From: Verrucomicrobiota bacterium
GTDB lineage: Bacteria; Verrucomicrobiota; Verrucomicrobiia; Limisphaerales; AAA164-E04
Assembly: GCA_029247315.1 (NCBI GenBank)
Contig: JAQWLM010000002.1
Span: forward strand, 201,785-265,784
Length of the DNA: 64,000 bases
Reading direction: 5' to 3'
Below, in pieces: positions 29,532-44,928 of the stretch. The position numbers and the translations under genes are program-made. Within the stretch, counting starts at the first letter, position 1. Each line of letters starts with the position of its first letter. The notes below the pieces were generated by a model. The model was not told the origin of the DNA, did not search any database, and saw nothing but the letters and a program-made list of their open reading frames with translations.

Positions 29532-29621
29532 GACGTTTCTGATCAAGGGATTCTGGGTCGACTGTCTTCAACCCAGAAAAAGCTTTTCACTTGGCTCAGA
29601 GCCATTACCGTGTATCGCCCT

Positions 29622-30038
29622 ATGGAACGAACGGTAGTTTTGTTGAAGCCTGATTGTGTTCAGAAAAAAATCATGGGGGAAGTCATCAAGCGATTCGAGG
29701 GTGAAGGCTTTCGCGTTGTGGGCTGCAAGATGGCACAACTGGATGAAAGCACACTTCGAGCGCACTATGCTCATTTAACGGAACTTCCTTTTTTCCCTGA
29801 AATTCTCGGGTTCATGCAAAGTTCCCCCATCCTGGCTCTATCACTTGAGGGAGAATCCGTCATCATGAAGGTCCGGGAGCTCATTGGCCCGACCGATTCC
29901 GCCAAGGCCGAGAAGGGCACCGTCCGCGGAGATCTCGGTGAGGATAAAATGCGCAATGTGGTGCATGCCTCCGATTCGAGAGAGGCAGCGGAAGCAGAGT
30001 TGGGAAGATTTTTCAAGCCCGAGGAACTCATGGTGTAG
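29622..30038 (+). CDS. ndk: nucleoside-diphosphate kinase
   Basis: MERTVVLLKPDCVQ, active-site NVVHASDS. ATG 29622 is preferred over GTG 29610. Confidence 0.95.
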   Translation: MERTVVLLKPDCVQKKIMGEVIKRFEGEGFRVVGCKMAQLDESTLRAHYAHLTELPFFPEILGFMQSSPILALSLEGESVIMKVRELIGPTDSAKAEKGTVRGDLGEDKMRNVVHASDSREAAEAELGRFFKPEELMV

Positions 30039-30088
30039 GAACGCAGGAGCTCAAAAAGATAACAAACGTCTTTGCAGCCCGACGTCAG

Positions 30089-31645
30089 CTAAAGATCAAT
30101 CTGGCTGGTCGCCCCATCAATTTCGGAGGGAGGCCCCTCCACTTCTCCAGCAGGTGCAGCCTCAAGGGCAGTCGCGGCCTTGATTTCCGCCAAGGCCTTC
30201 TTGGGATCGTAATCTTCAGGGAGACTGAGCCGTGTACGAAGCTGATCAGCGAGTAGGGGGTTCAAGCCCTGTTCAGGATCCAGCATCCGAGCCAACAACT
30301 CGATTTTCATTTCCTGAACGGTCGGCAGCTTGATGCGTACGATCTGACTTTGGCTGATCTGGTCGTAATACCGCGAGCGCATCTTGCGCACCAGCATTTC
30401 CCCGGCGATAGCTTTGTCTTCCTGCCCCATCGCGATGTCCATCAGGGCTCGTTCCATGAAGCCCATCAGCATCGCCTTCAGGCGATCCTGTGAGGTACTT
30501 CCAAATTCTTCCTCCACCCTGGCAAAGACATACTCCTCAAGGGTGGTGTCGATGGAATCAGGATATTTTTCCCGAACGTAGTCATACCATTTTTCCGCAG
30601 CCTGCATCCGGTTGTGTGTATAAAGGAAATAGACCGCCGTCCTGAGGAAATTCTTGTGGGCCGTCCTCATGTTGTCAGCGAACTTTTCCTCCTCCTCGAT
30701 CATTTCCTCGTAGGCACTGTTTGTTTTCTCGGCAATATCCAGGTTGGGGCCAAATTCAAAGGCGGTGGTATAAGTGCCGGGATCACCAGGGATTGCCACT
30801 GGAAACTCGATCATTCTGCCGCGATGGAAAGCCGTTTGCATACTCTGGAAAATAACCCGTCTCAGCGTCACGTAGTCTTTGGCACGCTCGGATACCTTCA
30901 AACCAAGATAGGCCCAATAGATGGCATGGGCCTCGGGAAGACGCCATTCGAGGGGGCCATGCTCAGCATCCACCTGCTGCATGACGGCAGGATCCATCTT
31001 GTAGATTTCTCGCAGATTACGCACCCGGTCCTTGTCCTCGGGCGATTCCGGTTGCAGCAGCACTTCGTAGTCAGGTTTGCCATCTGTCAGGAGCTCATTC
31101 CACTCTGCCGCCCAGCGGGACTTGTACAGCATGTTGGCATCGTCCAGATTGGCGCCCATCTTGTGCTGGAAGAACCAGGCAAGCTCTCGATAAATGAGGG
31201 TTTCCTGAGGGTTGTACTTGAGTCCATGGTCACGCAGCAGCTCGATTCCACGCTTAACCCAGAGCCAGCGATCATCATGATCCGGGAACTTAACGGAGAT
31301 ATTGTAGGCGAGGTTCCAGGCCTGGTGCACCCAGACGGTCACAAAATGAGGCTGCAACTTGGTGATCCAGTCCGCGAGCTGGACCATTTCAAAATACTTG
31401 CCTTCGTCCTGTAACTGAGTGGCCCGCACCCACAGCATGTTGGATATCAAACCACGAAACCCACCCAGGGCTACCGTGGTAAAGGCCAGCACCGGTGGGG
31501 CGTTCTCCAGAGGTTGCAAGCGTGTCAGCCCCATGGCTGCACGTGACTGGTTCAGACCCTTCTGCACCATGCCGGCACCGACGAGCATCAACACCACGAA
31601 GATGCTCAGGAAGTATTTGGAATATCGGGCGATCAGACCATTCAT
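30089..31645 (-). CDS. uncharacterised membrane-anchored protein (518 aa)
   Basis: Two N-terminal hydrophobic segments (FLSIFVVLMLVGAGMV, PPVLAFTTVALGGFRGLISNMLW), then a large helical-looking soluble domain. I recognise no family. The start overlaps the upstream permease stop by 4 nt. Confidence 0.5.
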   Translation of the reverse strand: MNGLIARYSKYFLSIFVVLMLVGAGMVQKGLNQSRAAMGLTRLQPLENAPPVLAFTTVALGGFRGLISNMLWVRATQLQDEGKYFEMVQLADWITKLQPHFVTVWVHQAWNLAYNISVKFPDHDDRWLWVKRGIELLRDHGLKYNPQETLIYRELAWFFQHKMGANLDDANMLYKSRWAAEWNELLTDGKPDYEVLLQPESPEDKDRVRNLREIYKMDPAVMQQVDAEHGPLEWRLPEAHAIYWAYLGLKVSERAKDYVTLRRVIFQSMQTAFHRGRMIEFPVAIPGDPGTYTTAFEFGPNLDIAEKTNSAYEEMIEEEEKFADNMRTAHKNFLRTAVYFLYTHNRMQAAEKWYDYVREKYPDSIDTTLEEYVFARVEEEFGSTSQDRLKAMLMGFMERALMDIAMGQEDKAIAGEMLVRKMRSRYYDQISQSQIVRIKLPTVQEMKIELLARMLDPEQGLNPLLADQLRTRLSLPEDYDPKKALAEIKAATALEAAPAGEVEGPPSEIDGATSQIDL

Positions 31646-33021
31646 TGGTTTCCTTGTGCTGTTGCCAGTTCACTCCGTGTGAAGGCCCAGATACCGAAAG
31701 CTGAAAAAATACCCCCCATCAATAAAACGATTTGGGTCAAGGCTTGCCCAAGGATTCCAAGTGTGATGCTGCGGCCGGTACTCAGAAAGCTTATGGGCGA
31801 AAAATCCTTCACTGTGTTGATCGTCTTCAGCATGCCCTTGGCCAAATAGATGGCCAGGGTGTCGAAGGCCGAGGAGCTGTCCTTTCGACCTGTTTCGTGA
31901 TTGATACCACTCACTCCCCCCTGTTCGATCACCTGCGCCAGGGTTCCACCGGAAAACCCGACAATCAGCAACGCGATGGAGACAAAGGCTGCTACCGGAA
32001 AAGAGAGGAAACTGGAGGCAGCCAGTCCGATGGCAGCCAGGAAGCCCATCCAGCAAAGAATCACAAGCATGCCGCGCACGTAGTTCCAGCCGAAACCTCC
32101 ATGCCGGTAGAGTACCTCCATGCCGTCCTCAGGCGGAAAGAGCAAGACCTCCTGGTTGTCGTTGTAGATATCGATCACAAGATTACCCTCGGGATCGAGC
32201 AGGTTCGGCGGAATCTCGAATTCAACGGGAGACTCCGGTGAAATATCCATTTGACGCTGCACCCGTTGCGGGGTTTCAGGAGGCCCAATCTCCCACACCA
32301 CATCATATGTCGAAGTATCATAAGGTTGGCTGGTGAAAAACTTGATCCGGAGGTACATGGGCTGGTCCTTGACATTCTGAGGGTCGGCAACCGGTATCGA
32401 CCAGCGTCGAAGATACCCTGGTCGAACCACCTGCTGGGCTGCCTTGACCTGTTCTTCCACCTGTTGGCGGAAAAACTCTGGATCCAACTTTGCAAGCTCC
32501 GGATTCTCTTCCAGACGCTGCGCCATGTATTCCTGCACGAGGGGATCCGTATCGCGGATAGGCGGCTTGGCAGAAACCCGCGCCACAAAAATTTCATTCT
32601 TAAGAACGCGTTTCTGTGCATCCGATAACTGATTTGCCCGCATGAGGGTAATAGCGTAAACAGCTGACGTGGATACCGCGAGAAGGGCGGCGTTGAGGAT
32701 AACAATGCCACACCATTTTCCCAGCCAGATTTTCCAACGCGGAATGGGTTTCACCACCAGCATTTGAATCTGACAGTCCTGCACTTCGCGGGCAAGACTC
32801 CCACAGGAAATCCACAAGGTTGAAAAACCAAGAAGAAAGGTGATCGTGCCCAGCGTATAGGTAAGCAGGATCTGCGTGAAACCCTGTGCCGACCCGTCAT
32901 GCTTGATCATCCATGGCAGGACCACCACCGAGGCCATGAGGAGTCCGGTGAGTACCATCACCACCCGGTAGCGGACGGCGGCTGTCAAGGTCAAACCAAT
33001 GATGGCAAAAAGTCCCTGCAT
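31642..33021 (-). CDS. ABC-2 type (NosY-like) permease with large extracytoplasmic loop
   Basis: 459 aa. Multiple TM segments at both ends, a ~170-aa soluble insert, and an ABC-2-like block QMLVVKPIPRWKIWLGKW. 30 nt downstream of an ABC ATPase gene. Confidence 0.6.
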   Translation of the reverse strand: MQGLFAIIGLTLTAAVRYRVVMVLTGLLMASVVVLPWMIKHDGSAQGFTQILLTYTLGTITFLLGFSTLWISCGSLAREVQDCQIQMLVVKPIPRWKIWLGKWCGIVILNAALLAVSTSAVYAITLMRANQLSDAQKRVLKNEIFVARVSAKPPIRDTDPLVQEYMAQRLEENPELAKLDPEFFRQQVEEQVKAAQQVVRPGYLRRWSIPVADPQNVKDQPMYLRIKFFTSQPYDTSTYDVVWEIGPPETPQRVQRQMDISPESPVEFEIPPNLLDPEGNLVIDIYNDNQEVLLFPPEDGMEVLYRHGGFGWNYVRGMLVILCWMGFLAAIGLAASSFLSFPVAAFVSIALLIVGFSGGTLAQVIEQGGVSGINHETGRKDSSSAFDTLAIYLAKGMLKTINTVKDFSPISFLSTGRSITLGILGQALTQIVLLMGGIFSAFGIWAFTRSELATAQGNQ

Positions 33022-33051
33022 GTGCGCTTTTAAAAAGTTTCAGTGGCGGAG

Positions 33052-34269
33052 TTAGGAGCCTTTGGAGTCTCCACCATCAAGGAGAGAGGAGAGTTTATCG
33101 TCGGCGGCATCCAGATCTGCCTGGGAAGAAGGCGCTGGTTTCGATTTGAGAGACGACTCCTCCGATCCCCCTGACTGTGACAAATGATCAAGCTTGGAGT
33201 AATCCACCTTGTCCTTTGTAACAGCTGAGGAAGTTGAACGCGGTGCTTGTCCCTCCGCGGCCGTAAGTCGATCCAGCATCTTGTCCTGATTGCTTGACGG
33301 GTCCTCGGAACCTCCCTTGAGGTAGTCCGCCACCCTCCCCGCAAGGGCGCCGGATGTACTGGCTTCAGCAGCGCGCGCCTTCTCGACCACCCCCAGGAAA
33401 TAACTTTCCAGATTCTGGGTTGGATTATCGACGGAAACAGCGTCCTGGGCGACCTCGGAACGGATAATGTCCAGCACTCGCTTCATGGTATCACGCCTGA
33501 GCAGTGGGGAAGTGATGCGGGTCACGTCCGGAGTGGTCAACAGCTCCTTCAAGGTACCCTGGGCCTGAATCTTTCCGCCGTAATAGATCACCACCCGGTC
33601 GCATACGTCCTCCACATCTGAAAGCAAGTGACTACTGAGGATGATGGTCTTTCCTCGCTTGGCCAGGGCAACGATCAAGTCCTTGATTTCGCGGCAGCCG
33701 ATAGGGTCCAGACCCGCGGTGGGTTCATCGAGGATCACCAGGTCCGGATCATTGATCAGGGCCTGAGCCAGGCCGATACGACGCTGCATACCCTTGGAAA
33801 ACTCACCTACCTGGCGCGAACGGGCATTGTTGAGCCCTACCATCTCAATCAGTTGCTCGGCACGTTTACGACGCTCTGGCTTATTCAGATTGAATAGATT
33901 TCCAAAGAAATCGAGAGTCTCCTTTGAATCCAGGTAACGGTAGAGATAGGATTCTTCGGGGAGGTAACCGATGCGTGATTTGGTGGCCACGTGACGAGGT
34001 GAATGACCGAATACCTCGATATGACCGCGAGTGGGGTAAAGGAGTCCCAGCAGCATTTTAATGGTGGTGGATTTTCCGGAACCATTCGGTCCCAGAAGGC
34101 CAAAAACCTCCCCACGTTTCACCTCAAAGTCGACGTTGTTGACCGCCCGTGCCTTGGGCCTCCTCCAGAAATCCTTGAAGACCTTGGTCAGACCTCGCAC
34201 GGAGATCACCGCCTCGCCGTGGGTCTGGTTGAACCGGTCGGAGGATAAATCTGTTTGATTGTTTACCAT
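33052..34269 (-). CDS. ABC transporter ATP-binding protein with ~107-aa low-complexity C-terminal tail
   Basis: Walker A GLLGPNGSGKSTT, signature FSKGMQRRIGLAQAL, Walker B LVILDEPTAGLD. Ser/Asp/Lys-rich tail from about residue 299. Confidence 0.9.
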   Translation of the reverse strand: MVNNQTDLSSDRFNQTHGEAVISVRGLTKVFKDFWRRPKARAVNNVDFEVKRGEVFGLLGPNGSGKSTTIKMLLGLLYPTRGHIEVFGHSPRHVATKSRIGYLPEESYLYRYLDSKETLDFFGNLFNLNKPERRKRAEQLIEMVGLNNARSRQVGEFSKGMQRRIGLAQALINDPDLVILDEPTAGLDPIGCREIKDLIVALAKRGKTIILSSHLLSDVEDVCDRVVIYYGGKIQAQGTLKELLTTPDVTRITSPLLRRDTMKRVLDIIRSEVAQDAVSVDNPTQNLESYFLGVVEKARAAEASTSGALAGRVADYLKGGSEDPSSNQDKMLDRLTAAEGQAPRSTSSAVTKDKVDYSKLDHLSQSGGSEESSLKSKPAPSSQADLDAADDKLSSLLDGGDSKGS

Positions 34270-34318
34270 AAGGTTTTTCCTTTATGCGTGCCCTCTGCTC
34301 ATTCCAAGTGCAAGCGTT

Positions 34319-36334
34319 TCAGACTGGCTGGATGGCTTCCTTTGGGGGCGCAGTCTGGGTGCCCTCATCGGATGCCTGCTCCGACTGTTGAAGGAAAGGC
34401 TCCAGTTCCTCACCGGAGCGAACCAGCCGGAAACTGTTGAATACCACCAGCAGGGATCCCACAACATGCATTACAGCAGCAAGGATGGGGTTGATATAAG
34501 CCATGGAAGCCAGAACAAACCCACCGATCACGAAAACCACTCCGAAGAGAAAGTTCTGATTGATCACTGAGCGAGTCTGTCGGGAAAGTTTGACGAGAAA
34601 TGGCAAACGCCTCAAGTCATTGTTCATCAGTGCGATCGTAGCACTGTGGATGGCGACTTCACTGCCAGCTGCGCCCATGGCAATGCCCAGGTCACCTGCA
34701 GCAAGAGCCGGAGCGTCATTGACACCATCCCCCACTACTGCAACACGATAGCCCTTGGCTTTCAGCTTGTGCACAAACTCAACCTTGTTTTGAGGCAGAC
34801 ACTCCGCCACGACCTCCTCACAACCGATTTCGCGAGCCACCCTGACGGCTACCGGCTCCCGATCCCCCGAGACCATGGCAATCCGACGGATATCGGCATC
34901 CTGCAAAGCTGCCAGGGATTCCTGTGCCTCAGCACGGGTTTGGTCCTGAAGCCCAATCCACCCAACAAATACCCCGTCGCGAGCCACATACAGGAGGCTG
35001 TAACCTTCCGCTTCACTCAGGTCGACACTGGACATGAAGTCGTCCTTCAAACCATTTTCCTGAAGCCAGTTAGCCCGACCTACGGTCAAGGTTTCCGCAC
35101 CAAGCCGAGCCGTGATTCCTTTACCCGCAGTTTCCTTGAAATCCACCGGCTCGGTCAATTCGAGGCCAGCTTCCTGCGCAAGTTGGGCAAGTGCCTTGGC
35201 GGTGGGGTGATTACTGTATTTCTCGGCAGATGCAGCCATATGCAGCAACTCGGCAGGCTTGATTCCCTCCTGGGGTGCCAATCGACTGACGGCAAGCTTA
35301 CCTGTCGTGAGGGTTCCGGTCTTGTCAAAGACAAAGGCGTTGATCTTGGCGGACAACTCGATATCAGCCACGTTCTTGATCAGGATACCCAGGCGGGCAG
35401 CAGAGGAAAGTGCGGCTACCATTGCAGTGGGGGTAGCCAGGATAAAAGCGCAAGGGCAGGCAATGATGAACACGGTAATCACACGACTAAGGTCCTGAGT
35501 AAAGGCCCAAACAAGGGCACCCACCAAGAGGACAAGCGGGGTGTAGAATCCCATGTACTGGTCAACAATGCGCATGATAGGCAACTTTGTTTTCTCAGCT
35601 GCCAAAATCAGATCGTGAACCCGACCCAGCGTGGTATCCGCATCTGCACGGCTCACCTTGACTTCCAGAAGACCGGTCAAGTTCTGTGTTCCCGCAAAAA
35701 CTTCATCCCCTGCCTTCTTGTCAACAGGAAGAGATTCGCCGGTGATATTGGCCTGGTTGATGGTAGCCTCTCCACTGGCGATCAATCCGTCGGCAGCGAT
35801 ATTATCTCCCGGGCGGATGCGGATGACATCACCCACCTTTAAATCCTTGACCTCGACCTCCTCTTCCTTACCACCGTTGACACGGCGTGCCTTGGTTGGG
35901 GTCAACTTCACCAATGACTCGATCGAGGCGCGTGCACCCTCCGCTGTCCTTGTCTCGATGATCTCACCCAGCAGCATGAAGAAAGCCACCAGTCCCGATT
36001 CCTGGTATTCACCGGAAGCGAAGGAGGCCAGAACCGCGAGGGCCACCAGCTCGTTGGTGCTGAGACGTCCCTTTCGCAGGTCCTTGATCGCCGTCCAGAC
36101 AATGGGATAGCCTAGTATCACGGCACCAATCATGGCGTTGATATCGCCCACCACAGCCCCATTTTCGAAGAAATAGTGAATGATAAAGGAATTGATGACA
36201 AAAAGCAGTCCGACGAGGACCTGACCGAGACGAATCTCGGTATGCTCGTGGTCGTGTCCACATCCATCGCAATGATCATCGTGTTGATGGTGATGCTCAC
36301 CGGATTTCTGGCTCAAGAGTGATGTTACTTGCAT
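34319..36334 (-). CDS. heavy-metal-translocating P1B-type ATPase
   Basis: 671 aa. CPC in TM6 (IIACPCAFILATP), DKTGTLT, GDGVNDAPAL. His/Cys-rich N-terminus EHHHQHDDHCDGCGHDHEH. No ferredoxin-like HMA (GMxCxxC) domain. Confidence 0.9.
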   Translation of the reverse strand: MQVTSLLSQKSGEHHHQHDDHCDGCGHDHEHTEIRLGQVLVGLLFVINSFIIHYFFENGAVVGDINAMIGAVILGYPIVWTAIKDLRKGRLSTNELVALAVLASFASGEYQESGLVAFFMLLGEIIETRTAEGARASIESLVKLTPTKARRVNGGKEEEVEVKDLKVGDVIRIRPGDNIAADGLIASGEATINQANITGESLPVDKKAGDEVFAGTQNLTGLLEVKVSRADADTTLGRVHDLILAAEKTKLPIMRIVDQYMGFYTPLVLLVGALVWAFTQDLSRVITVFIIACPCAFILATPTAMVAALSSAARLGILIKNVADIELSAKINAFVFDKTGTLTTGKLAVSRLAPQEGIKPAELLHMAASAEKYSNHPTAKALAQLAQEAGLELTEPVDFKETAGKGITARLGAETLTVGRANWLQENGLKDDFMSSVDLSEAEGYSLLYVARDGVFVGWIGLQDQTRAEAQESLAALQDADIRRIAMVSGDREPVAVRVAREIGCEEVVAECLPQNKVEFVHKLKAKGYRVAVVGDGVNDAPALAAGDLGIAMGAAGSEVAIHSATIALMNNDLRRLPFLVKLSRQTRSVINQNFLFGVVFVIGGFVLASMAYINPILAAVMHVVGSLLVVFNSFRLVRSGEELEPFLQQSEQASDEGTQTAPPKEAIQPV

Positions 36335-36397
36335 GATTCCTTATATGTTAAAATAATGGGTTTCTCGCGGGCGATCTACCATCGATCGTCCAAGTCC

Positions 36398-37537
36398 CTA
36401 CTGGTCTTCTTCCCCTTGTTTGCCGCCCGTGAGAGAGGGTTCACGATTGAGCTGAAGGCGTAATTCCTGCGTCGTACCTGGCTCAATCGCCGGTAGCAAC
36501 CAAGTATCATCAGCATTGGCAAGGACACGCCCCATCCCCTCAATAATCAAACGTTTTCGAAAGAATGCTGGGTTTGCCTCGAAGTGGGGTTGTAACTGGG
36601 TAAAAACCTTGGCATCCGCAATGACCCGACTGGTTATCAGATTGCTGCGAGCGATACCATCGTTGATGATGGCTTGGGCCTGTCCCTGGGCACGCCGCAA
36701 CTGCTCAAGAGCGTCACCCTCGGCCTCGTTACGCACCTGGCTGACTGTTTGCTCGGTCTGGGTTACCTGTTCGAAGGCTTCCTTGACAAAAACAGGGGGA
36801 TAGGTGCGCACGTCCAGCGACTGGAGCGTGATTCCCAGGTTGGCCTTTTCAACCGTCTCCAGAAAACGTTCACGCACCTTTTCCTTGTGCTCCAGGCGAT
36901 TACGGTAGAGGACATCATCCGCATTGAATTGCGCAGAGGCAAAGATCACCGCGTTGTTCAGTGCATTTTCAAGTAATTCTTCTACCCGTAAAAAATTAAA
37001 CTCAAAAGCTACCGGGTCGCTGATACGATACTGGGCGTTGGCCCTTGCATGGACGATGTTGCCGTCAGAAGTCAGGGCATATCCATCCACACCGGGACGC
37101 AGCGACGGCATCGAGTAGGGCAATTCCCCGGTTATTTCCATCTCGGGAGTCACGGCATACCAGCAGTTGGTGGCAACGATGGTGCGCGTCTCCCCACTCG
37201 GAATCCGAATGATTTCACCAATAGGGCTGGGCCACGACCAGTGAAGGCCCTGGTCAAGCACCTGGTCGGCACCACTTCCCACCGGCTTGCCAAATCGCAG
37301 GACCACCGCTACTTCGTTGGGTTCAACGGTGAAGACACCGGACCCTATGAAGAGTATAAAAAGCCCTAACATCAAGACCTTGATGATTTTAAAGCTACTG
37401 GACAAGGCATCGGCAAGGGCTCGTGTGCCAGAGTCCTCCATGGGATGCGAGACGGGCACTTCTTCAGCGGCCTTGTCAGCATGAAGATCAATTTTTTCCG
37501 GTAAATCCGGTAATTCAGGTTTGTTGGAATCACTCAT
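36398..37537 (-). CDS. SPFH/band-7 protein, HflK-like architecture
   Basis: 379 aa. Acidic N-tail, one TM (VLMLGLFILFIGSGVF), an SPFH core (EVAVVLRFGKP...GLHWSWPSPIGE) and a coiled-coil C-terminal region. Confidence 0.75.
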   Translation of the reverse strand: MSDSNKPELPDLPEKIDLHADKAAEEVPVSHPMEDSGTRALADALSSSFKIIKVLMLGLFILFIGSGVFTVEPNEVAVVLRFGKPVGSGADQVLDQGLHWSWPSPIGEIIRIPSGETRTIVATNCWYAVTPEMEITGELPYSMPSLRPGVDGYALTSDGNIVHARANAQYRISDPVAFEFNFLRVEELLENALNNAVIFASAQFNADDVLYRNRLEHKEKVRERFLETVEKANLGITLQSLDVRTYPPVFVKEAFEQVTQTEQTVSQVRNEAEGDALEQLRRAQGQAQAIINDGIARSNLITSRVIADAKVFTQLQPHFEANPAFFRKRLIIEGMGRVLANADDTWLLPAIEPGTTQELRLQLNREPSLTGGKQGEEDQ

Positions 37538-37613
37538 GACACTTGCAACTTAGCAGTTTTGAAAACAGATATTTACCACCTTAAACGTTGGCTCAACCAT
37601 CATCCACAAGCGA

Positions 37614-38519
37614 CTACCGCCCCGTATCCTGCATGGCATCGGCACCCTCTTTCAGGAGGTTGAAGGGGGGCGTGGAGGGATCCGCCACAATGGTGGTTTT
37701 CTCCTTGGTGGCCGCTTCCAAGGCCTCCAGACCTAAGAGCAGCTCAGCAAGTTCCGGGTTTTGCTGGAACACCTTGTAGTATTCGTTGGCCTTGGCCTCC
37801 GCGTCGCCCTCGATTTCGATGGCCTTGGCCCGTGCCTCGTTCAGGATTTTCTTACTCTCGGCGTCTGCCTTGGAACGAATTTCCATGGCGCGACTCTCAC
37901 CTTCACCCTGAAACTGCTTCACCAAGCGCTGGCGATCAGCCCGCATCCGTTCGAAGACCTTCTGGGTGTTACTCTCGGGGAGTCCAAGCTGCTTGATATG
38001 AGCAAATGCCACCTCGATACCGTAATTGTCCTTGGCTGCATTCTGAATGGCCGCAAGGATTTCTGTCTCGATTTCATCAAACTTCAAATCCTCCTCCCGA
38101 GGCGAAATCAAGTCACGAAAGGGGTGCTGCCCGATCACGCTGTTCTTGGCATCCCGCACCAGACTTTCAAGGCTTTGCTGCGCCTTGATCGCGTCGCCAT
38201 TGAAGCGCTCCAGATAGATAGCGGGATCACTGATCTTCCAACCAACGAAAACCTCGATGATCAGCGGCTTGGCATCACCAGTGGTGGTCTGCTCAAACTT
38301 ACGCTCAAAATTCTGCAATCGACTGTCGAATTTGTGTACTTTCTGGATGGGCCAAGGCCACTTGAACTCAAGTCCGGGCTCATCGATCGTCTCGGAGTAT
38401 TTCCCAAAAGTGGTGACCACGGCTACCTCCGCGTTTCGCACTTGGAAACAGAACAGGATCGAAGCAAATATCAACAGCAGGATGCCGCCGGTGACGAGGG
38501 ATATCAGGTTTTTGTTCAT
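37614..38519 (-). CDS. SPFH/band-7 protein, HflC/prohibitin-like
   Basis: 301 aa. N-terminal TM (GGILLLIFASILFCF), VAVVTTFGKY...PGLEFKWPWPIQKV, GIEVAFAHIKQLGLPE, coiled coil QGEGESRAMEIRSKADAESKKILNEARAKA. Confidence 0.8.
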   Translation of the reverse strand: MNKNLISLVTGGILLLIFASILFCFQVRNAEVAVVTTFGKYSETIDEPGLEFKWPWPIQKVHKFDSRLQNFERKFEQTTTGDAKPLIIEVFVGWKISDPAIYLERFNGDAIKAQQSLESLVRDAKNSVIGQHPFRDLISPREEDLKFDEIETEILAAIQNAAKDNYGIEVAFAHIKQLGLPESNTQKVFERMRADRQRLVKQFQGEGESRAMEIRSKADAESKKILNEARAKAIEIEGDAEAKANEYYKVFQQNPELAELLLGLEALEAATKEKTTIVADPSTPPFNLLKEGADAMQDTGR

Positions 38520-38567
38520 AAACTGGATACGAAATAAAGGGTCTTTGTCGTTTGAATCAAATGGGGG

Positions 38568-40505
38568 TTAACGTTCTTCAGGGCGCGCTCCAAGCAGATC
38601 ATAAGCAATCTTGTCTTCAAGATTGAGCAGGAAGGTCTCGTTGCCCTTGGGAACAATGACATATTTGCGTACATTGGTCAGCGAATTCGCCATGGCATCA
38701 AAATACTTGCGCTGTTTGAAAACATCCGGGGCGGACTGATACGCCTTGATCAGATCCTGAAACTGATTCGCTTTGGCCTCGCTGGTCAGGACGCGCTCGT
38801 AGCGAAAACCTTCCGCCATGGAAACCAACCTGGCCGCCTCACCGCGTCTCTTGGGAACGATTTCCGCCGCGTAACCCTCGGCCTGCAGAATTTTGGCCTG
38901 CATTTCCTGCTCAGCACCAATGACCTCCTCAAAGGCCCCCGCCACTGGAGTCATCTTGTCACCCACGGGAGGATGAATATCTTGGAGCCCTACAAAAAGG
39001 ATTTCGACACCCAACTCAAGGGAATCGGCGAGGCTCTGCATCCGCATTTTGAGTTCCTGAGCGGCCTGCAGTCGGCCGGTAGACATAATGTCGATCAAGT
39101 CCACGCTCACAAGATATCGAACCACTTCACGATGTCCAATGGATTGCAGCAACTCAGCAGGTTCAGAGTGGTTGTAGTACCACTGCTCGAAGTCCTTGAC
39201 AACGTATTGCACAGGAACGGCGGCAGTGAGGAAATTGACGGGCACGGTCTGTTCCTGGCCATCCGTCATCGGAGAAGATGCCTGTTCGCGGCTCGCCACC
39301 AGGAAGTTTGTTTCCTCAGCGTAATGCTTGGATGTCCATAGAAGCGTTCGCTCGAATACCCCCTGCATATCCGTTTCGTAGCCCACGTTAAAACTTCTCA
39401 ACTCCCTGGCGGGATGCCGAAAGACCTGGTCGATGGGCCATGGCCACTTGAAGTGCAGGCCCGGCTTGAGCACGGCATCTCCGGATCGCTGGAAAGGCAG
39501 AAGAGGCCATCGGAGTTCTCGAGAAGGGCTGCCAAAACGTTCAAGGATGCCCAGTTCATTGGGCTCGATAATGACGAAAGTGGTGGAAAGCATTAGGATT
39601 CCAAGCTGGAAAAGAACCAACCATGCCAGCGCCTTCTCAAGAAACTTGTAGAACCATGTATCTGAAACCTTGAAGCCAAACTGGTAGTCCAGAGCCTGCG
39701 CGGCTGTGGTTACCAGTCCGGCGGGCTGCCCGAGAAGGCCTACCAGGCGACTCTCGTAGAGAGCCCGTTCGGCCTTGCCCTTCGTGCGGGGGCGGTAGAT
39801 ATCGAGGATCAGATTGATAAACGTCTCCACCGCGGAAAGCCCAAGGAGGACCACCATGATGCGTGCCATGTGAAAATCAAGGCGCGGAACATCAAACCAG
39901 CCAGCTGCAAATGCCATCACCACCACCACACAGATAACGGAACCCAGCAGCAGATAGGCACCGCCGGGACGCAGCAGGCGTAGCTTATCGAGTCGCGCAA
40001 CACCAGAGCTGTATTTGCCCAACATGAACAGCAGCAGGGCAAAGGCCGAAAACGACACCATGACGATGGGGGCCTTGGACAGATCGGGCTGTAAAACGCC
40101 TGGAAGCCAGTTCCAAAGAAGATAAGCACCCACAGCTTGCCCAATGCCCAGTAGGGCGGTGAATATGGGTACGAAAAACCTTTCGAACTGTTCACGAGCC
40201 TTGCGGGCAAGAAACGTGTCATCCCCGGATTCATCAAAGAGAGCCGCACGATTACGATCCTTGGCAATGTCCTCAAACTCCATTGTCTCCAGTTGCTCGC
40301 GATTTTCCAATCGCATCTGGAAATAGCTGATCGCAGCCACCAGGAAACCGATGCCGAGGAAAACGGCACCCACCGCCGCCGTGGCGGAAAGCGCAATCTT
40401 CGCGATGACGGACGCCACCGCGCAGGCAACCAGGAGACCCAACATGTTGACCAATCCGTTTTTCTGTGTATTTCGTTCCATACTTCGCTTCAATCCACCA
40501 CGCAC
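38568..40505 (-). CDS. polytopic membrane domain fused to C-terminal SPFH/band-7 domain
   Basis: 645 aa. About 300 aa with at least 6 hydrophobic segments, then IIEPNELGILERFG...LKPGLHFKWPWPIDQV, VEILFVGLQDIHPP and a coiled coil. Confidence 0.7.
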   Translation of the reverse strand: MRGGLKRSMERNTQKNGLVNMLGLLVACAVASVIAKIALSATAAVGAVFLGIGFLVAAISYFQMRLENREQLETMEFEDIAKDRNRAALFDESGDDTFLARKAREQFERFFVPIFTALLGIGQAVGAYLLWNWLPGVLQPDLSKAPIVMVSFSAFALLLFMLGKYSSGVARLDKLRLLRPGGAYLLLGSVICVVVVMAFAAGWFDVPRLDFHMARIMVVLLGLSAVETFINLILDIYRPRTKGKAERALYESRLVGLLGQPAGLVTTAAQALDYQFGFKVSDTWFYKFLEKALAWLVLFQLGILMLSTTFVIIEPNELGILERFGSPSRELRWPLLPFQRSGDAVLKPGLHFKWPWPIDQVFRHPARELRSFNVGYETDMQGVFERTLLWTSKHYAEETNFLVASREQASSPMTDGQEQTVPVNFLTAAVPVQYVVKDFEQWYYNHSEPAELLQSIGHREVVRYLVSVDLIDIMSTGRLQAAQELKMRMQSLADSLELGVEILFVGLQDIHPPVGDKMTPVAGAFEEVIGAEQEMQAKILQAEGYAAEIVPKRRGEAARLVSMAEGFRYERVLTSEAKANQFQDLIKAYQSAPDVFKQRKYFDAMANSLTNVRKYVIVPKGNETFLLNLEDKIAYDLLGARPEER

Positions 40506-40516
40506 CGGGTGGCTTT

Positions 40517-41659
40517 TTAATTCAATTCACGACTCTCAAAACTCATCACTGCCAGCGCCATCAAGGCACTGAGGTAAAAAAGCACATAGGCAAAAGAGCG
40601 CCCAACATAGGACCAGGGAACGGTCTTGTCGTTCTCCAGAGCGTCCGCGATCCAGAAAAGTTGCCAGTTGGGTATGATGGCGTAGACAATGGAAGCCCAG
40701 ACTTGCCTGTCCAGACCAGCCTCCTTCATGGCGGCAATGTCCTCCGGCAGCAAGGAAGCCATCTCACTCATGTCGATCTTTTTATTGTCATTCGTATCCG
40801 CCTTCGAAATGGTAGAGGAAAGCAATCGCTTCTGCGATTCCGTGAAAGGACCCGACTGGACTGTTTGATGTGAGGGAAAGGACACCCATGCGGGTTCTGC
40901 CCAGCGCCCGAAGAGGTAATCAGACATCAGTCCCAGCAGGAACAGCAGGGTGCAGATGGCAAGTGTAGGCACCACCTCGAGCCGTGTGGAACATACCAGA
41001 GCCAAGCCAGCCAGAAGCAGGAAGGCACATAGAATCAACATGGACGCCGGGATCAAACGCCAGTCCAGATCGATATGATCCTCATACATCGTTCCGTTGC
41101 GCTCTTTGAATGCAATGTAGACAAAGGCAATGGTAACCATCACGGCGACAAAGCACACCGCATCCGAGGTAAAGGTGCGGTTCAGGAAGTAATTGGTAAA
41201 GCCTGCCAGCAGATATGCCAAGGCGATAGCGCCCGTGAAGACAAAGAAGGCCGTCTTGTCGACCTCGCCGTATGCGGTGAAAGATATCTTGCTGGCAACC
41301 AGGGCACTGATCATGTTGACGTAGGTGAGAACGGCTAGAGTAGCTGCCAGACCCACGTACTTCCCCATAAGGAAGCCCACACGGCCCACTGGCTTGGACA
41401 AGACCGCCAGCGCAGTTCCAGTGCGGATCTCATGGGCCACTGAGGTGGAGGCACTGACCACAGCCCCAAACAATCCCACCAGCAGCAAGGTCGCCAAAAC
41501 ACTATCCTTGACAAGTTTGGGATCATCCCCAAAGCCAAAGTAAGGCGTGCTGGCAAGGAAAACAGCAAACACGGCAGAAGAAGTCATCAGCAGGAGAAAG
41601 ACCGGCTGACGCAACAACTCCATGAAGGCGTTCCATGCTATGGTTCTAATCTGTCTCAT
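40517..41659 (-). CDS. ABC-2 type (NosY-like) permease with EF-hand-containing soluble loop
   Basis: 380 aa. ABC-2-like block IRTGTALAVLSKPVGRVGFLMGKY, multiple TMs, and a ~75-aa loop carrying DTNDNKKIDMSE (nt 40763-40798). No adjacent ATPase gene. Confidence 0.6.
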   Translation of the reverse strand: MRQIRTIAWNAFMELLRQPVFLLLMTSSAVFAVFLASTPYFGFGDDPKLVKDSVLATLLLVGLFGAVVSASTSVAHEIRTGTALAVLSKPVGRVGFLMGKYVGLAATLAVLTYVNMISALVASKISFTAYGEVDKTAFFVFTGAIALAYLLAGFTNYFLNRTFTSDAVCFVAVMVTIAFVYIAFKERNGTMYEDHIDLDWRLIPASMLILCAFLLLAGLALVCSTRLEVVPTLAICTLLFLLGLMSDYLFGRWAEPAWVSFPSHQTVQSGPFTESQKRLLSSTISKADTNDNKKIDMSEMASLLPEDIAAMKEAGLDRQVWASIVYAIIPNWQLFWIADALENDKTVPWSYVGRSFAYVLFYLSALMALAVMSFESRELN

Positions 41660-41686
41660 TAAAGATACAAATCACAGGGACCGAGG

Positions 41687-41714
41687 AGAATAATGAACTC
41701 CCGGCCACAGTCAA
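41687..41714 (-). promoter_or_regulatory. candidate sigma70-type promoter for the permease/SPFH cluster
   Basis: Minus strand TTGACT-16 nt-TATTCT, with the -10 ending about 27 nt upstream of ATG 41659. Consensus use in this lineage is unverified. Confidence 0.3.
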
Positions 41715-41815
41715 AGCAGAAATTTTCTTGGCAATTTTATTCAAGACAATCAAAAGGACACGCAACTATTCAAGAAAAGGCAAATTTGCCAATGGGCGTT
41801 TGAAGGCACAGAGCA

Positions 41816-44608
41816 TCACGGAGCCGCATCAGGTGGATGCCTCTGAAGGTCATGGATGACGATGCCTTGAGAGGCATGTCGCGCTGCGGGATCCCTGGAT
41901 CGCGCAAGCGCCACCGCCTGATCCCTCGCATTATCGTCAAAGCGGTACGTCTCGTGCAGTTCACGATGATGGGTGGCCTTGTCCTCATTCCCAAGTTCAG
42001 CATGAATCAGCGAGAGGTTGTAATGCGCAGTCTGGTTTTCTGAGTCCAGTTGAAGGGTATGCTGGAATTGCTGGATCGCAAGGTCGAGAAATTGCCTCTC
42101 TCGCTCGGGCTGCCCGCGCTCCAGCTTGGACCGCAGGTAGTAGGTCTGCCCCAACTCGTTGATGACAACATAGTCCTTGCTGAAGTCAAAACCACGTTCG
42201 TCCAGTTCGGCATAACGATCCTCGAGGATGCTTCGATAATTTTGAATGGCCTCGTCAAGTTCACCATTTTGCGCATGCACCCGACCTGTAAACCATGCAA
42301 TGGTCCAACGGGGAGCAGGTGGATCGAAAGCAGCGGCACGCTGCAGGGCGAGAGCGGCATCATCCACTCTACCCTCCTTGAAGAAGACTCGGGCCATGTT
42401 GACCGGCCCCTCAGGGTAACCCAGTGCCTCAACCTGCGCAAAGGCCTTAGAGGCCTGCTTCAGCTCCCCCTTGTCACTGCCGGCTGAGCCCTTGAGCAAG
42501 AGACCAATGCCGTAATCATTCCAGCGCTGCCAGGTCGGGAATCCAGCTGGAGTAATCTCAGCGGTGAAATCCTGCGGGTCTGGATCGCCGCCTTCGATGC
42601 CAAAGGCCACTGCATCCTCGCAAAGAATGGAAACAGGCAGGTCATTCACATAATCCTTGCCATAAACATACTGCATGTAGGTGGTGTCAAACTTCCGGTA
42701 TTTAAGCTTCACCTGAAGGCGGATGGCCTTTGTCTGCGTATCGGGCACTCTGAACCTGTAATGCACCACCGCAGCCGCACCAGGCGGAATCTGGTTGTTA
42801 TAAAGCGGGGTAAAGATGTCCCCAGCATTTCGCCGGTCAATTCTGTTTCCATCCTTGTCGAGCATGTAAACGTTCACGAAATGCGACCAAGGATCCACAC
42901 GGTTCTGATCTCCAAAACTACCACTTTGGCCCAGGACCTTATCGCCGTCCTCCGCCGTGACCTCCAGCCATACCTGGTTTGAATCCGCAGTCCCTTGTGT
43001 GAAGATGTGACCAAGTTTCAGGGTGCGAATCACGATCTCAAACAGGTAACTCTGGCCGGGCTTGAGGTCAGGAACTTCCGGGCGAAGAGGGGCGATGAGG
43101 GGTGCATCCACCGTGCCTCCTTCCTTGATACCAAAAAGATCCACCCTGAGGTTACCTTCGTGGAATGTTTCATGGGCCTGATTGACCCATTCAGGTGCCT
43201 TGCGGAGATGGGGCAGTGCTGTATTGGCAGATGGAAAGAGATGGTCATGGATCTTGAGTTCTCCGGAATCATCAAAGAACCGGGCCCCAAAATCCTCCGA
43301 AGCCTCCAACTGCATGTGGCAATCGTTGCAGTTGCGTTCTGCCTTGGGAGGATAATAAAAAGCCCTGGCATTGATGCCCGAGACACCACTGAGAAGGAAA
43401 TTGTCGTAGTGATTCTGCCCTCTCAACCATTCCTTGTAATGCGTCAGTTCCCCTGGAAGGCTGACTTTGTGGCACACCGAGCAGTATTCTGAGGTCTTGT
43501 GCAGCGGCTTGAGGAAGGTCTTATTGTGAAAGGCTGGTTTGGCCTTGACCAGGAGCTCATTGACATATTGAAGGGCCGTATTGTCACTGAAGGCAAATGG
43601 ATAATGAATCGGCTCCTCAAGGGTATAGGCCGCGTTTCCCTTGGTACTGTTGACATGGGTCATGGAGTGACACACGGTACACGTAATGCCAGCATGCGCC
43701 GTTGGATGATGACGCATATCAAACTCTGGATCATCAAAGGCGCCACTGAGAAATGGGACGACATCATGGCACCCGGCGCACCATCGGGATGCCTTGACAT
43801 CACCGTCCCGCTTGATAAGCACGTCCCTCAATTCCTTGATGGAAAACAGATATGGTTCATTGTTGAACGAGCTGAAGTGATGTGAGCTGTGGAACCAATC
43901 ATGGTAGGCATCTTCATGACATCGCTGGCAATACTCATCCATCATCAGGGTTTTGGCCGGAACAAACTGACCCGTAGCCGTCCTTGCGAGTGAAGGCTCG
44001 AAATACTGTTCCCCTTCCTTGGGACCTTCAAGGTTCCACCGACGCGGGTCCTGTTTATGCAAGCCAGCCATACCGACGACGACCACCCCAACCGCAAGGG
44101 CCCAACCGGCACCAACCTTCCACTGGAGACGCGGACCCGCCAGGCGATGCAGCACGTACAACCACACCACAAGTATGGGAGTGATGACGTGTGCCCAATA
44201 CAGCCAGAGGCGCGTGTTGGGATTCCTGACCTCAAATCCCTCCACCCGCATGAGGGCAAATCCCGATAAGAGCAGGATCAGGCAAATGACCAGCAGACCA
44301 TAACCCACCTTGACGGCCCGACGATTGCGCCGCTTGTAAGCAAGCCGGAGGTGCGCGAAAGCAAAAAACAAGAATGGGAACACCAGGACAATGCCCAGAA
44401 CCAGGTGCGCCAGGAACATATACTGATAAAAATAGTTTTGATAAAGTTCATCGTACCACCACTCCAACAAGGTGATGGCACTGAGATACGCAGAATTGGC
44501 GCCGAGCACTGCGAACAAGCCCAGCACCGCATAGAGCAGAACCTGAAGCCGAGGCCCCATGGTCGGGCGATAACGGCGATGCCCGTTTGATGAACCCTCC
44601 TGAGTCAT
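41816..44608 (-). CDS. membrane-anchored pentahaem c-type cytochrome fused to TPR repeats
   Basis: Five CxxCH motifs (CQRCH, CAGCH, CTVCH, CSVCH, CNDCH; nt ~43316-43930). N-terminal ~5 TM helices with intramembrane His (FLAHLVLG, YWAHVITP, YVLHRLAG). C-terminal TPR-like repeats. ATG 44608 (MTQEGS) is preferred, and the ORF is open to ATG 44728. Confidence 0.8.
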   Translation of the reverse strand: MTQEGSSNGHRRYRPTMGPRLQVLLYAVLGLFAVLGANSAYLSAITLLEWWYDELYQNYFYQYMFLAHLVLGIVLVFPFLFFAFAHLRLAYKRRNRRAVKVGYGLLVICLILLLSGFALMRVEGFEVRNPNTRLWLYWAHVITPILVVWLYVLHRLAGPRLQWKVGAGWALAVGVVVVGMAGLHKQDPRRWNLEGPKEGEQYFEPSLARTATGQFVPAKTLMMDEYCQRCHEDAYHDWFHSSHHFSSFNNEPYLFSIKELRDVLIKRDGDVKASRWCAGCHDVVPFLSGAFDDPEFDMRHHPTAHAGITCTVCHSMTHVNSTKGNAAYTLEEPIHYPFAFSDNTALQYVNELLVKAKPAFHNKTFLKPLHKTSEYCSVCHKVSLPGELTHYKEWLRGQNHYDNFLLSGVSGINARAFYYPPKAERNCNDCHMQLEASEDFGARFFDDSGELKIHDHLFPSANTALPHLRKAPEWVNQAHETFHEGNLRVDLFGIKEGGTVDAPLIAPLRPEVPDLKPGQSYLFEIVIRTLKLGHIFTQGTADSNQVWLEVTAEDGDKVLGQSGSFGDQNRVDPWSHFVNVYMLDKDGNRIDRRNAGDIFTPLYNNQIPPGAAAVVHYRFRVPDTQTKAIRLQVKLKYRKFDTTYMQYVYGKDYVNDLPVSILCEDAVAFGIEGGDPDPQDFTAEITPAGFPTWQRWNDYGIGLLLKGSAGSDKGELKQASKAFAQVEALGYPEGPVNMARVFFKEGRVDDAALALQRAAAFDPPAPRWTIAWFTGRVHAQNGELDEAIQNYRSILEDRYAELDERGFDFSKDYVVINELGQTYYLRSKLERGQPERERQFLDLAIQQFQHTLQLDSENQTAHYNLSLIHAELGNEDKATHHRELHETYRFDDNARDQAVALARSRDPAARHASQGIVIHDLQRHPPDAAP

Positions 44609-44928
44609 GCCTCCATCAAATCCACAAGTCCTACGCTTTGCAACGTGAAAAAAAAGGGAATTGGATGACAACAACTTGCGCCATCCTCGGAGCAGCACTT
44701 TATCCTGCTTAATCGCTTTTCCCGACAAATCCCCTCAACGAATCCTATCGCCTTAAAGGGAACAAGGAAGGCTTAGAAACGGATGTATTTTTTCCATGCA
44801 ACCACGTTCCGGCGAGATGCAGATTAGGCTCGCGAGGTATGTGATACCGTGCAAGCATGCAGTCTTGGTCCATGGCTCGGACGGCCAGCATAGTGTTTCG
44901 TGCCGGGCTAAGGAACAAACCATAAGCC

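Follow-up and report, generated by a model that had tools for sequence, protein, structure and literature searches.

A stretch of 64,000 nucleotides (nt) from a Verrucomicrobiota bacterium (assembly GCA_029247315.1, contig JAQWLM010000002.1, positions 201,785 to 265,784; below, the window) carries a compact cluster of eight genes on its minus strand, here numbered g1 to g8 from 5' to 3', in which three genes for SPFH proteins and one for a P1B-type metal pump are nested among the genes of an ABC-2 type ABC transport system. Judged by its synteny, the cluster is functionally constrained and conserved in two PVC phyla, Verrucomicrobiota and Lentisphaerota. We propose that the SPFH proteins make up a scaffold dedicated to the metal pump and that this scaffold is coupled to a NosFY-like ABC and chaperone module, a proposal that in our opinion has about an even chance of being right. 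A first-pass annotation of the same DNA had described the eight co-directional genes, their spacing and their domains, and all of this was found again: ABC-2 permeases in g1 and g7, Band_7/SPFH domains in g2, g3 and g4, a P1B ATPase in g5 and an ABC ATPase in g6. It had also put the locus forward as a candidate for an undescribed unit of SPFH proteins with transporters, and the unit is real and looks undescribed, as full-text literature searches returned no description of an SPFH-P1B-ABC cluster, although such an absence is no proof of its being unpublished.

The gene order carries most of the argument. When species-representative genomes were scanned with an alignment of the g8 family, at least 598 genomes matched, and the best 80 were fetched and mapped by tblastn, which left an informative set of 54 Verrucomicrobiota loci where 9.8 kb or more lies upstream of g8. 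The genes g2 to g8 are colinear in 47 of these, g6-g8 stand alone in five and two are rearranged. The median distances between neighbouring genes in the g8-anchored Verrucomicrobiota loci run from -17 to 54 nt, and in one locus (L089) the gaps are 1-22 nt with g7 and g8 overlapping. The neighbourhoods of g8 homologues with 64% and 55% identity hold all eight genes, followed by other downstream genes. Upstream of g1 there is a HhH-GPD gene in L089, an unknown gene on the opposite strand in L090 and a multihaem cytochrome gene in the window, and since these neighbours differ the unit begins at g1. Without g1 and with unrelated flanks, the order g2-g3-g4-g5-g6-g7-g8 recurs in Lentisphaerota, in one complete genome (CP119760, strain ZTH) and on two megabase-scale contigs, and it is shared by 11 Lentisphaerota-type metagenome loci, 9 of which hold all of g2-g8. 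The identity to the window proteins is about 30% for g2 and g8, 35% for g3, about 55% for g5 and 60-64% for g6. That the order has been kept across two phyla despite such divergence and different flanks is what points to a functionally constrained cluster, and the case that the first-pass annotation had named as refuting its idea, a gene order peculiar to this genome, is thereby removed.

The cluster is also clearly modular. The junctions were counted on metagenome contigs in a reciprocal scan anchored on g2, in which a Lentisphaerota sequence was used first, and four of them were intact wherever they could be seen: g2 to g3 (67/67), g3 to g4 (58/58), g4 to g5 (47/47) and g7 to g8 (24/24). The junction from g6 to g7 was intact in 27 of 31 cases and that from g5 to g6 in 29 of 41. 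The invariant blocks are thus g2-g3-g4-g5 (block A) and g7-g8, the core of block B, neither of which was ever broken. The arrangement of A followed by B is, from these comparisons, frequent and ancient but optional, with a split at g5|g6 in about 10-30% of the loci. What stands of the earlier claim is therefore a conserved unit mixing SPFH proteins and transporters, whereas to call it one system or one operon is too strong in view of this breakpoint. Apparent gaps of 600-700 nt between g6 and g7 were considered as extra genes and dropped; they are probably an artefact of the variable g6 tail, as the tblastn matches stop well before the g6 C-terminus.

All three SPFH proteins pass the Band_7 (PF01145) cutoff of 23.6 bits, g2 with 57.2 (2.9e-15), g3 with 98.0 (8.6e-28) and g4 with 76.9 (2.5e-21). 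At equivalog level they fall just short, g2 (143.6 bits) and g4 (137.4) of HflK (TIGR01933, cutoff 159.4) and g3 (130.2) of HflC (TIGR01932, cutoff 134.4), so by these scores they are HflK/C-like proteins and near misses for equivalog status. Of the solved chains, E. coli HflC is nearest to g3 (7vhp_G, 1.9e-25) and HflK to g4 (7vhq_E, 1.6e-22); g3 has one N-terminal transmembrane (TM) segment and g4 one at amino acids (aa) 51-69. The SPFH half of g2 matches the same HflK chain, 7vhq_E, in Foldseek (1.5e-13), and between g2 and g4 the identity is about 25%. The likeness to the E. coli HflK/HflC-FtsH complex (7vhp, 7wi3, 9cz2), with g3 corresponding to HflC and g4 as well as the C-terminal half of g2 to HflK, includes the N-terminal TM helix, the SPFH domain and the long coiled coil, but E. 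coli has two paralogues where there are three here, g2 has an extra N-terminal six-helix membrane domain of about 230 aa and a conserved linker, and what is conserved next to the trio is a P1B ATPase, not FtsH or HflX. In the neighbourhoods examined FtsH was seen only once, in L086, 5 kb off and on the opposite strand.

The AlphaFold2 (AF2) model of g2 (pLDDT 75) predicts six N-terminal membrane helices and the linker, followed by one more TM helix, the SPFH domain and a coiled-coil helix of 70 residues. For the N-terminal domain there is no usable Pfam match even at E<=5. Among 48 aligned Verrucomicrobiota-type homologues it has an invariant intramembrane glutamate, E219, and an invariant glutamine, Q115, and in a six-sequence alignment of both phyla E219 and a nearby aspartate, D202, are invariant. 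The linker, which reads YRPR...ESRL...LDYQFGFKVS.TW.Y.F.EKAL, is invariant between the phyla, is modelled with low confidence and would be cytoplasmic if g2 has the topology of HflK. The N-terminal domain has a Foldseek match to the membrane domain of the CDF-type Zn transporters YiiP/ZnT (E 0.02, TMt 0.55), which is tempting next to a metal pump; being too weak, and of a kind typical of helical bundles, it is noted here as a lead and no argument is built on it. We know of only two well-defined partners of bacterial SPFH proteins, FtsH and NfeD. In the SPFH-NfeD operons, for instance QmcA-YbbJ (8z5g), one or more SPFH genes stand in the same operon as a particular membrane partner, as they may do here, but none of the eight proteins has an NfeD domain and the partner is instead the pump and the ABC system. 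Operons of SPFH genes with a specific membrane partner have been surveyed in prokaryotes (PMC2636767), and three SPFH genes in one operon, the uncharacterised PaFlo5-7, are found in Pseudomonas aeruginosa (PMC13086221); P-type ATPases and ABC transporters go unmentioned in both papers, and the survey is silent on ATPases of any kind.

The pump g5 scores 551 bits against TIGR01525 (cutoff 346) and its 463 bits against TIGR01512 pass the cutoff of that Cd family. The catalytic motifs DKTGT, ITGES and GDGVNDAP are intact, there is a CPC in M4, M6 has the motif MHVVGS and the N-terminal tail is rich in His and Cys. By scores and motifs it belongs to the P1B-type heavy-metal ATPases. DKTGT and the features of M4, M6 and the tail recur in 57 orthologues from both phyla, in which M4 always has CPC, M6 reads H-x-x-G/S-S/T and an N-terminal CxxC is flanked by His. 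Among the Verrucomicrobiota loci the identity of g5 is 63-93%, and no other genes of the cluster are as conserved there as g5 and g6 (61-93%). The subgroup is another matter. P1B-1 (Cu+) pumps are marked by YN in M5 and MxxSS in M6, P1B-2 (Zn2+) pumps by a Lys in M5 and Asp-x-Gly in M6, and P1B-4 pumps (Co/Zn/Fe) by SPC in M4 and HEGxT in M6. M5 of g5 reads NQNFLFGVVFVIGG, with neither YN nor Lys. The P1B-4 pump sCoaT (7qbz) aligns with g5 from end to end and has, like g5, a His in M6 and a His-rich N-terminus that lacks a ferredoxin-fold metal-binding domain, but it has SPC in M4 and HEGST in M6 where g5 has CPC and H-V/N-V-G-S, the Glu being lost. In the P1B-2 pump ZntA (4umv) an Asp takes the place of the M6 His of g5, which also lacks the Lys of M5, and the Cu(I) residues of the P1B-1 pump CopA (3rfu), YN in M5 and MxxSS in M6, are absent as well. 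By these three signatures g5 is unclassified within P1B. Since it scores higher against TIGR01512 (Cd) than against TIGR01511 (Cu) and lacks the Cu(I) residues, a metal of the Zn/Co/Cd/Fe(II) class is more likely than Cu(I). Neither a metal-sensor regulator nor other resistance genes were found in the cluster neighbourhoods examined.

The ATPase g6 is a member of the ABC family (ABC_tran, PF00005, 115.9 bits, 2.6e-33) with the Walker A GPNGSGKST, the signature FSKGMQRR, the Walker B LVILDEP and the H-loop SSHLL, followed by a low-complexity tail of about 150 aa. The closest solved nucleotide-binding domains (NBDs) are those of ABCA7, ABCA4 and ABCA1 (about 1e-64), and then NosF (5.5e-46). Its neighbour g7 matches PF12679, which we take to be the family of NosY, with 34.3 bits (cutoff 27.2), and hydropathy predicts six TM segments. 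Between TM3 and TM4 there is a domain of about 190 aa that should be periplasmic when one counts from a cytoplasmic N-terminus. Pfam had nothing usable at E<=5 for this loop or for the g6 tail. Among solved permeases none but NosY shows any resemblance to g7, and its E of 0.14 is not significant. The likeness to NosDFY(L) (7o0y) thus consists of a NosF-like NBD, PF12679 hits for both g1 and g7, a marginal permease similarity and the combination of an ABC-2 system with a partner that is periplasmic there and probably also here, in this case beside a metal pump. It differs in that the partner there is the beta-helix NosD and here g8, an all-alpha, TPR-like solenoid; neither the eight proteins nor the flanks yielded a NosD, NosL or NosZ domain, and we do not count the locus as a NosDFY system. 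The layout of ATPase, permease and accessory protein in three genes is also that of GldA/GldF/GldG and DrrAB. The best NCBIfam matches of g6 are DrrA with 219 bits (cutoff 312) and GldA with 206.8 (cutoff 402.6), and g7 matches GldF with 21 bits (cutoff 288.5). Membership in GldAFG was rejected, as the scores are far below the cutoffs, there is no GldG and g8 is not GldG-like. With the PADLOC models of defence systems no component was matched, the similarity of g6 being that of a generic ABC ATPase.

The last gene, g8, had been called an orphan, and that has to be given up. It belongs to a large uncharacterised family with more than 4,500 homologues in a word-indexed search and, in an exhaustive search, 2,732 clusters at 50% identity, of which 871 have E<1e-30. 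All the relatives are annotated as hypothetical, the named close ones are all Verrucomicrobiota, and around a distant representative (30% identical) they are Lentisphaerota/Victivallales. There is no Pfam or NCBIfam family for g8, no Pfam match even at E<=5, so that it is not a TPR protein in the sense of Pfam, and no match in a profile search of the PDB with the family. In the confident AF2 model (pLDDT 87) an N-terminal TM helix is followed by an all-alpha solenoid with a single beta hairpin, and Foldseek finds generic TPR proteins with TM-scores of at most 0.27; on this model g8 is TPR-like in fold class only. Four representatives of the 50%-identity clusters (P0125, P0126, P0137 and P0143) have a C-terminal FKBP_N/FKBP_C prolyl isomerase, and in-frame g8-FKBP fusions stand in three loci (L062 10001-11890, L079 8995-10863 and L082 10001-11803), all with g2-g8 and the last also with g1. 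Further members are an ApbE fusion (P0171) and a protein in which an M56 peptidase and a secretin domain flank a g8-like domain (P0157), both single observations that could be artefacts of gene calling. Basic residues precede the TM helix of g8, and together with the fusion partners they suggest a periplasmic, chaperone-like protein.

The first gene, g1, encodes an ABC-2-type permease with a PF12679 score of 27.2 bits, exactly at the cutoff, and about 8 hydrophobic segments by hydropathy. It stands upstream of g2 in all 40 Verrucomicrobiota-type loci and in none of the 16 Lentisphaerota-type loci. The first-pass annotation had stressed that this permease has no ATPase next to it, which is so, and the oddity is partly explained by a locus of another Verrucomicrobiota lineage (L087), in which a g1 orthologue with 43% identity directly adjoins g7-g8. 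It had further regarded g1 and g7 as paralogues; a remote similarity exists, but at 33% identity over 73 aa (E=0.003) a close paralogy must be rejected. The suggestion that the system is responsive to Ca2+ has not survived as a general property, for it starts from an EF-hand-like loop that g1 carries within an inserted stretch of about 60 aa, and the insertion is present in just 3 of the 27 aligned g1 sequences (26 loci and the window), namely those of the window, L004 and L041. EF-hand loops follow the pattern D-x-[DN]-x-[DN]-x-x-[ILV]-x-x-x-E over 12 residues, within a helix-loop-helix. The loop of the window (DTNDNKKIDMSE) fits it, that of L004 and L041 reads DQDRNNRLEPAE, and in database searches there were weak S100 matches at E of about 1 and no Pfam match. 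From this distribution the insertion is a lineage-specific add-on to the permease.

Taken together, the cluster could work as follows. By analogy with E. coli HflK/C, g2, g3 and g4 would assemble at the periplasmic side of the inner membrane into a hetero-oligomeric SPFH ring or cage, and the pump would be a dedicated client inside this ring, in the place that FtsH holds there; g5 is the best candidate for a client because it never leaves the SPFH genes. The pump would export a transition metal, and the N-terminal part of g2, with its seven TM helices, and the conserved linker are candidate surfaces for contact or docking. The genes g6, g7 and g8 would make a type-V (ABC-2/ABCA-like) ABC machine, to which g1 may add a second permease. 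The NosY-like g7, with its putative periplasmic domain, would be translationally coupled to g8, a partner of chaperone type, and we hypothesize, with NosDFY as the model, that ATP hydrolysis drives a periplasmic hand-over or maturation step and not simple efflux. In this the module would be closer to such hand-over machines than to a drug exporter. With both blocks at work, metal export would be coupled to the maturation of extracytoplasmic proteins or of the envelope, a cooperation that is suggested by the recurrence of A before B in two phyla and by the position of A in Verrucomicrobiota, where g1 and g6-g8 enclose it. A bolder version, in which the SPFH cage encloses the pump, the metal is discharged into a confined periplasmic chamber and the NosFY-like motor with the TPR/prolyl isomerase chaperone (g6-g8 with g1) loads or matures extracytoplasmic proteins, we consider unlikely; were it true, Verrucomicrobiota and Lentisphaerota would possess a metallation compartment of a new kind, and with it the first example of an SPFH cage that has a transporter of its own operon as client.

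A number of observations weigh against the proposed coupling of an SPFH-bound pump to the ABC module. Those on the junction g5|g6 would fit two independent systems, one of SPFH proteins and pump and one of ABC-2 and TPR-like proteins, that are neighbours by descent and share at most a broad envelope-stress regulon, with neither a physical nor a mechanistic coupling between them; we think this possible but on the whole doubtful. The breakpoint always lies at g5|g6, intact in 29 of 41 cases against 100% for the junctions within the blocks. The five loci with g6-g8 alone have variable and unrelated genes upstream, among them a subtilase, a squalene-hopene cyclase (L058), PolA and phosphoglucomutase, and eight distinct Verrucomicrobiota-type loci have g1-g5 alone, followed mostly by an open reading frame (ORF) on the opposite strand. 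In other Verrucomicrobiota lineages one locus has g7-g8 alone (L088) and another only g1-g7-g8 (L087, also without an ATPase; its g1 and g7 are 43% and 32% identical to the window proteins), with no SPFH protein or pump nearby. About 13 loci have extra genes inserted exactly at g5|g6, selfish genes of toxin type and other accessory genes: Doc (Fic/DOC) toxin genes in eight (L028, L046, L049, L054, L068, L137, L146 and L158), a RES-domain gene in one (L060 4301-6425) and, as single or paired cases, DUF5615/PIN-like, DUF2442, DUF413 and AAA_14/DUF4143 ATPase genes, the inserts of this last group being those of L051 (6687-7025), L024 (7000-7344), L077/L143 and L169 (6772-7917). Such insertions fit a boundary between operons, or else a site that tolerates polarity, and with the breakpoint they are the best evidence for independent neighbours. 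Both the A-only and the B-only loci tend to be GC-rich, which is compatible with the same lineages bearing a split cluster, although it does not prove it. Independent neighbours would on the other hand not be expected to keep order and orientation across two phyla in which g2 and g8 have only some 30% identity and the flanks differ. Neither would they explain why g1 stands beyond the SPFH and pump block in Verrucomicrobiota and elsewhere adjoins g7-g8, a position by which block A is nested inside the genes of the ABC system, or why the gap at g5|g6 is 15-49 nt in many loci, the window, with 49 nt and no insert, included.

It could also be that the parts are ordinary ones and their adjacency meaningless, g2-g4 being the FtsH modulators of this lineage, g5 a standard Zn/Cd/Co resistance pump and g6-g8 a generic exporter. 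The near-cutoff scores of the trio allow this, E. coli HflK and HflC are its best structural matches, homologues of g2 are publicly annotated as 'protease modulator HflK', and g5 lies above the cutoff of the Cd family. We nevertheless find it distinctly unlikely, as there are three SPFH genes instead of two, one of them with a conserved extra membrane domain of 300 aa that belongs to no Pfam family, the pump is attached in every one of the 47 cases from two phyla, its M5 and M6 motifs match no defined subgroup, resistance genes and metal sensors are missing from the neighbourhoods examined and FtsH is unlinked. A role in membrane-lipid homeostasis, in which g6, g7 and g1 make up an ABCA-like exporter of a lipid or a lipid-linked molecule, the SPFH proteins organise the microdomain that goes with it and the pump is incidental or regulatory, would agree with the similarity of the g6 NBD to the lipid transporters ABCA7, ABCA4 and ABCA1, with the classical tie of SPFH proteins to membrane microdomains and with the squalene-hopene cyclase beside the B-only locus L058. 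The similarity of an NBD says little about the substrate, however, the hopanoid neighbour is a single case, and the invariant pump and the FKBP fusions of g8 would be left unexplained, so we hold this to be very improbable. The export system responsive to Ca2+ that was suggested in the first-pass annotation has the EF-hand-like loop of g1 in its favour, but the insertion is rare, g1 is absent from the Lentisphaerota clusters and g5 is a P1B heavy-metal ATPase and not a Ca ATPase of the P2 type, which makes it the least credible explanation of all, with hardly any chance of being correct. For the preferred scaffold around the pump and its link to a NosFY-like module, there are three more points on the debit side: the motifs of g5 do not reveal the metal, the similarity to NosY is weak (14-34 bits), and the location of g8 is judged from the positive-inside rule and a few fusions, while FKBP domains occur in the cytoplasm too.

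For a bacterial SPFH scaffold the cluster names a candidate client, a P1B pump, and a recurrent second partner, the ABC-2/TPR module with its occasional prolyl isomerase. It also defines three large unannotated domain families, namely g8 with its roughly 2,700 clusters at 50% identity, the N-terminal domain of g2 and the putatively periplasmic domain of g7, and a clade of P1B pumps that does not fit any described subgroup.

Table 1. Genes, sites and neighbouring features of the cluster, in positions of the window (position 1 is its first letter)
Feature	Position	Strand	Description
UvrA-like gene	26811-29531	plus	906 aa; UvrA interaction domain and two ABC halves; convergent with g8
ndk	29610-30038	plus	nucleoside diphosphate kinase; 3' of the UvrA-like gene, convergent with g8
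g8	30089-31645	minus	518 aa; start overlaps g7 stop (ATGA)
g8, TM helix	31553-31636		N-terminal, AF2 model
g7	31642-33021	minus	459 aa; ABC-2 permease
g7, domain between TM3 and TM4	32074-32649	minus	about 190 aa
g6	33052-34269	minus	405 aa; ABC ATPase
g5	34319-36334	minus	671 aa; P1B ATPase
g5, M6 motif	34454-34471		MHVVGS
g5, catalytic motif	35312-35326		DKTGT, aa 337-341
g5, M4 motif	35450-35458		CPC, aa 293-295
g5, N-terminal tail	36242-36295		His/Cys-rich
g4	36398-37537	minus	379 aa; HflK-like SPFH
g3	37614-38519	minus	301 aa; HflC-like SPFH
g2, ORF as listed	38568-40505	minus	645 aa; HflK-like SPFH
g2, corrected	38568-40481	minus	637 aa; most likely start
g2, linker	39627-39797		conserved
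g2, N-terminal domain	39792-40481		six predicted helices
g1	40517-41659	minus	380 aa; ABC-2 permease
g1, insertion	40700-40897	minus	about 60 aa, aa 255-320
g1, EF-hand-like loop	40763-40798	minus	DTNDNKKIDMSE
Promoter-like site	41687-41714	minus	TTGACT-16-TATTCT, 5' of g1; frequency as by chance
Inverted repeat	41728-41738 / 41782-41792		TTGGCAATTTT / AAATTTGCCAA
g0	41816-44728	minus	970 aa; multihaem cytochrome
Ceramidase-domain ORF	44929-46308	plus	459 aa; PF04734

The gaps between the ORFs as listed are 11, 48, 76, 63, 49 and 30 nt, with a 4-nt overlap (ATGA) between g7 and g8 (Table 1). For g2 an ATG 24 nt inward is most likely the true start, and the orthologues in L001 and L002 both open with MERN; with this start the gap between g1 and g2 becomes 35 nt. 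The promoter that had been noted before g1 exists as a site, but such sites are no commoner than chance (8 observed against 6.6±2.9 in shuffled sequence), and the view that there is no convincing internal terminator holds, the terminator-like sites being at chance level too (17 against 14.8±3.8 in shuffles) and none of them judged convincing. With both counts at chance, they carry no information on transcription units. A search of positions 29000-45500 against Rfam at a permissive threshold gave no riboswitch or other RNA. An inverted-repeat scan of the intergenic regions returned a single pair, 5' of g1, with arms of 11 nt set 43 nt apart, which may be an operator or may have arisen by chance.

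The co-directional gene upstream of g1 (g0), at a distance of 156 nt, encodes a multihaem cytochrome (Cytochrome_C554, MtrC/MtrF-like) with C-terminal TPR repeats. It was considered as a ninth member of the cluster and rejected, because other genes hold that place in both relatives with a readable upstream flank. The ORF beyond it has the N-terminal domain of neutral/alkaline ceramidases (7e-15).

Some observations on other loci may be added. Two Lentisphaerota-type loci have shorter versions of the cluster, L110 with g2-g6 followed by opposite-strand genes and without g7-g8 downstream, and L107 with g2-g5 followed by two different plus-strand ORFs. In two divergent loci, genes for a '23S rRNA-intervening sequence protein' (PF05635) lie between g4 and g5 (L119 6643-7062 and L161 8111-8794). 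Several contigs of metagenome-assembled genomes that bear the cluster have unlikely organism titles, namely Bifidobacterium or Bifidobacteriaceae (L024, L045, L048, L049, L070 and L078), Klebsiella (L079), Chitinophaga pinensis (L082) and Akkermansia (L040/L043), and as every other carrier found belongs to Verrucomicrobiota or Lentisphaerota, the records look mislabelled or mis-binned.

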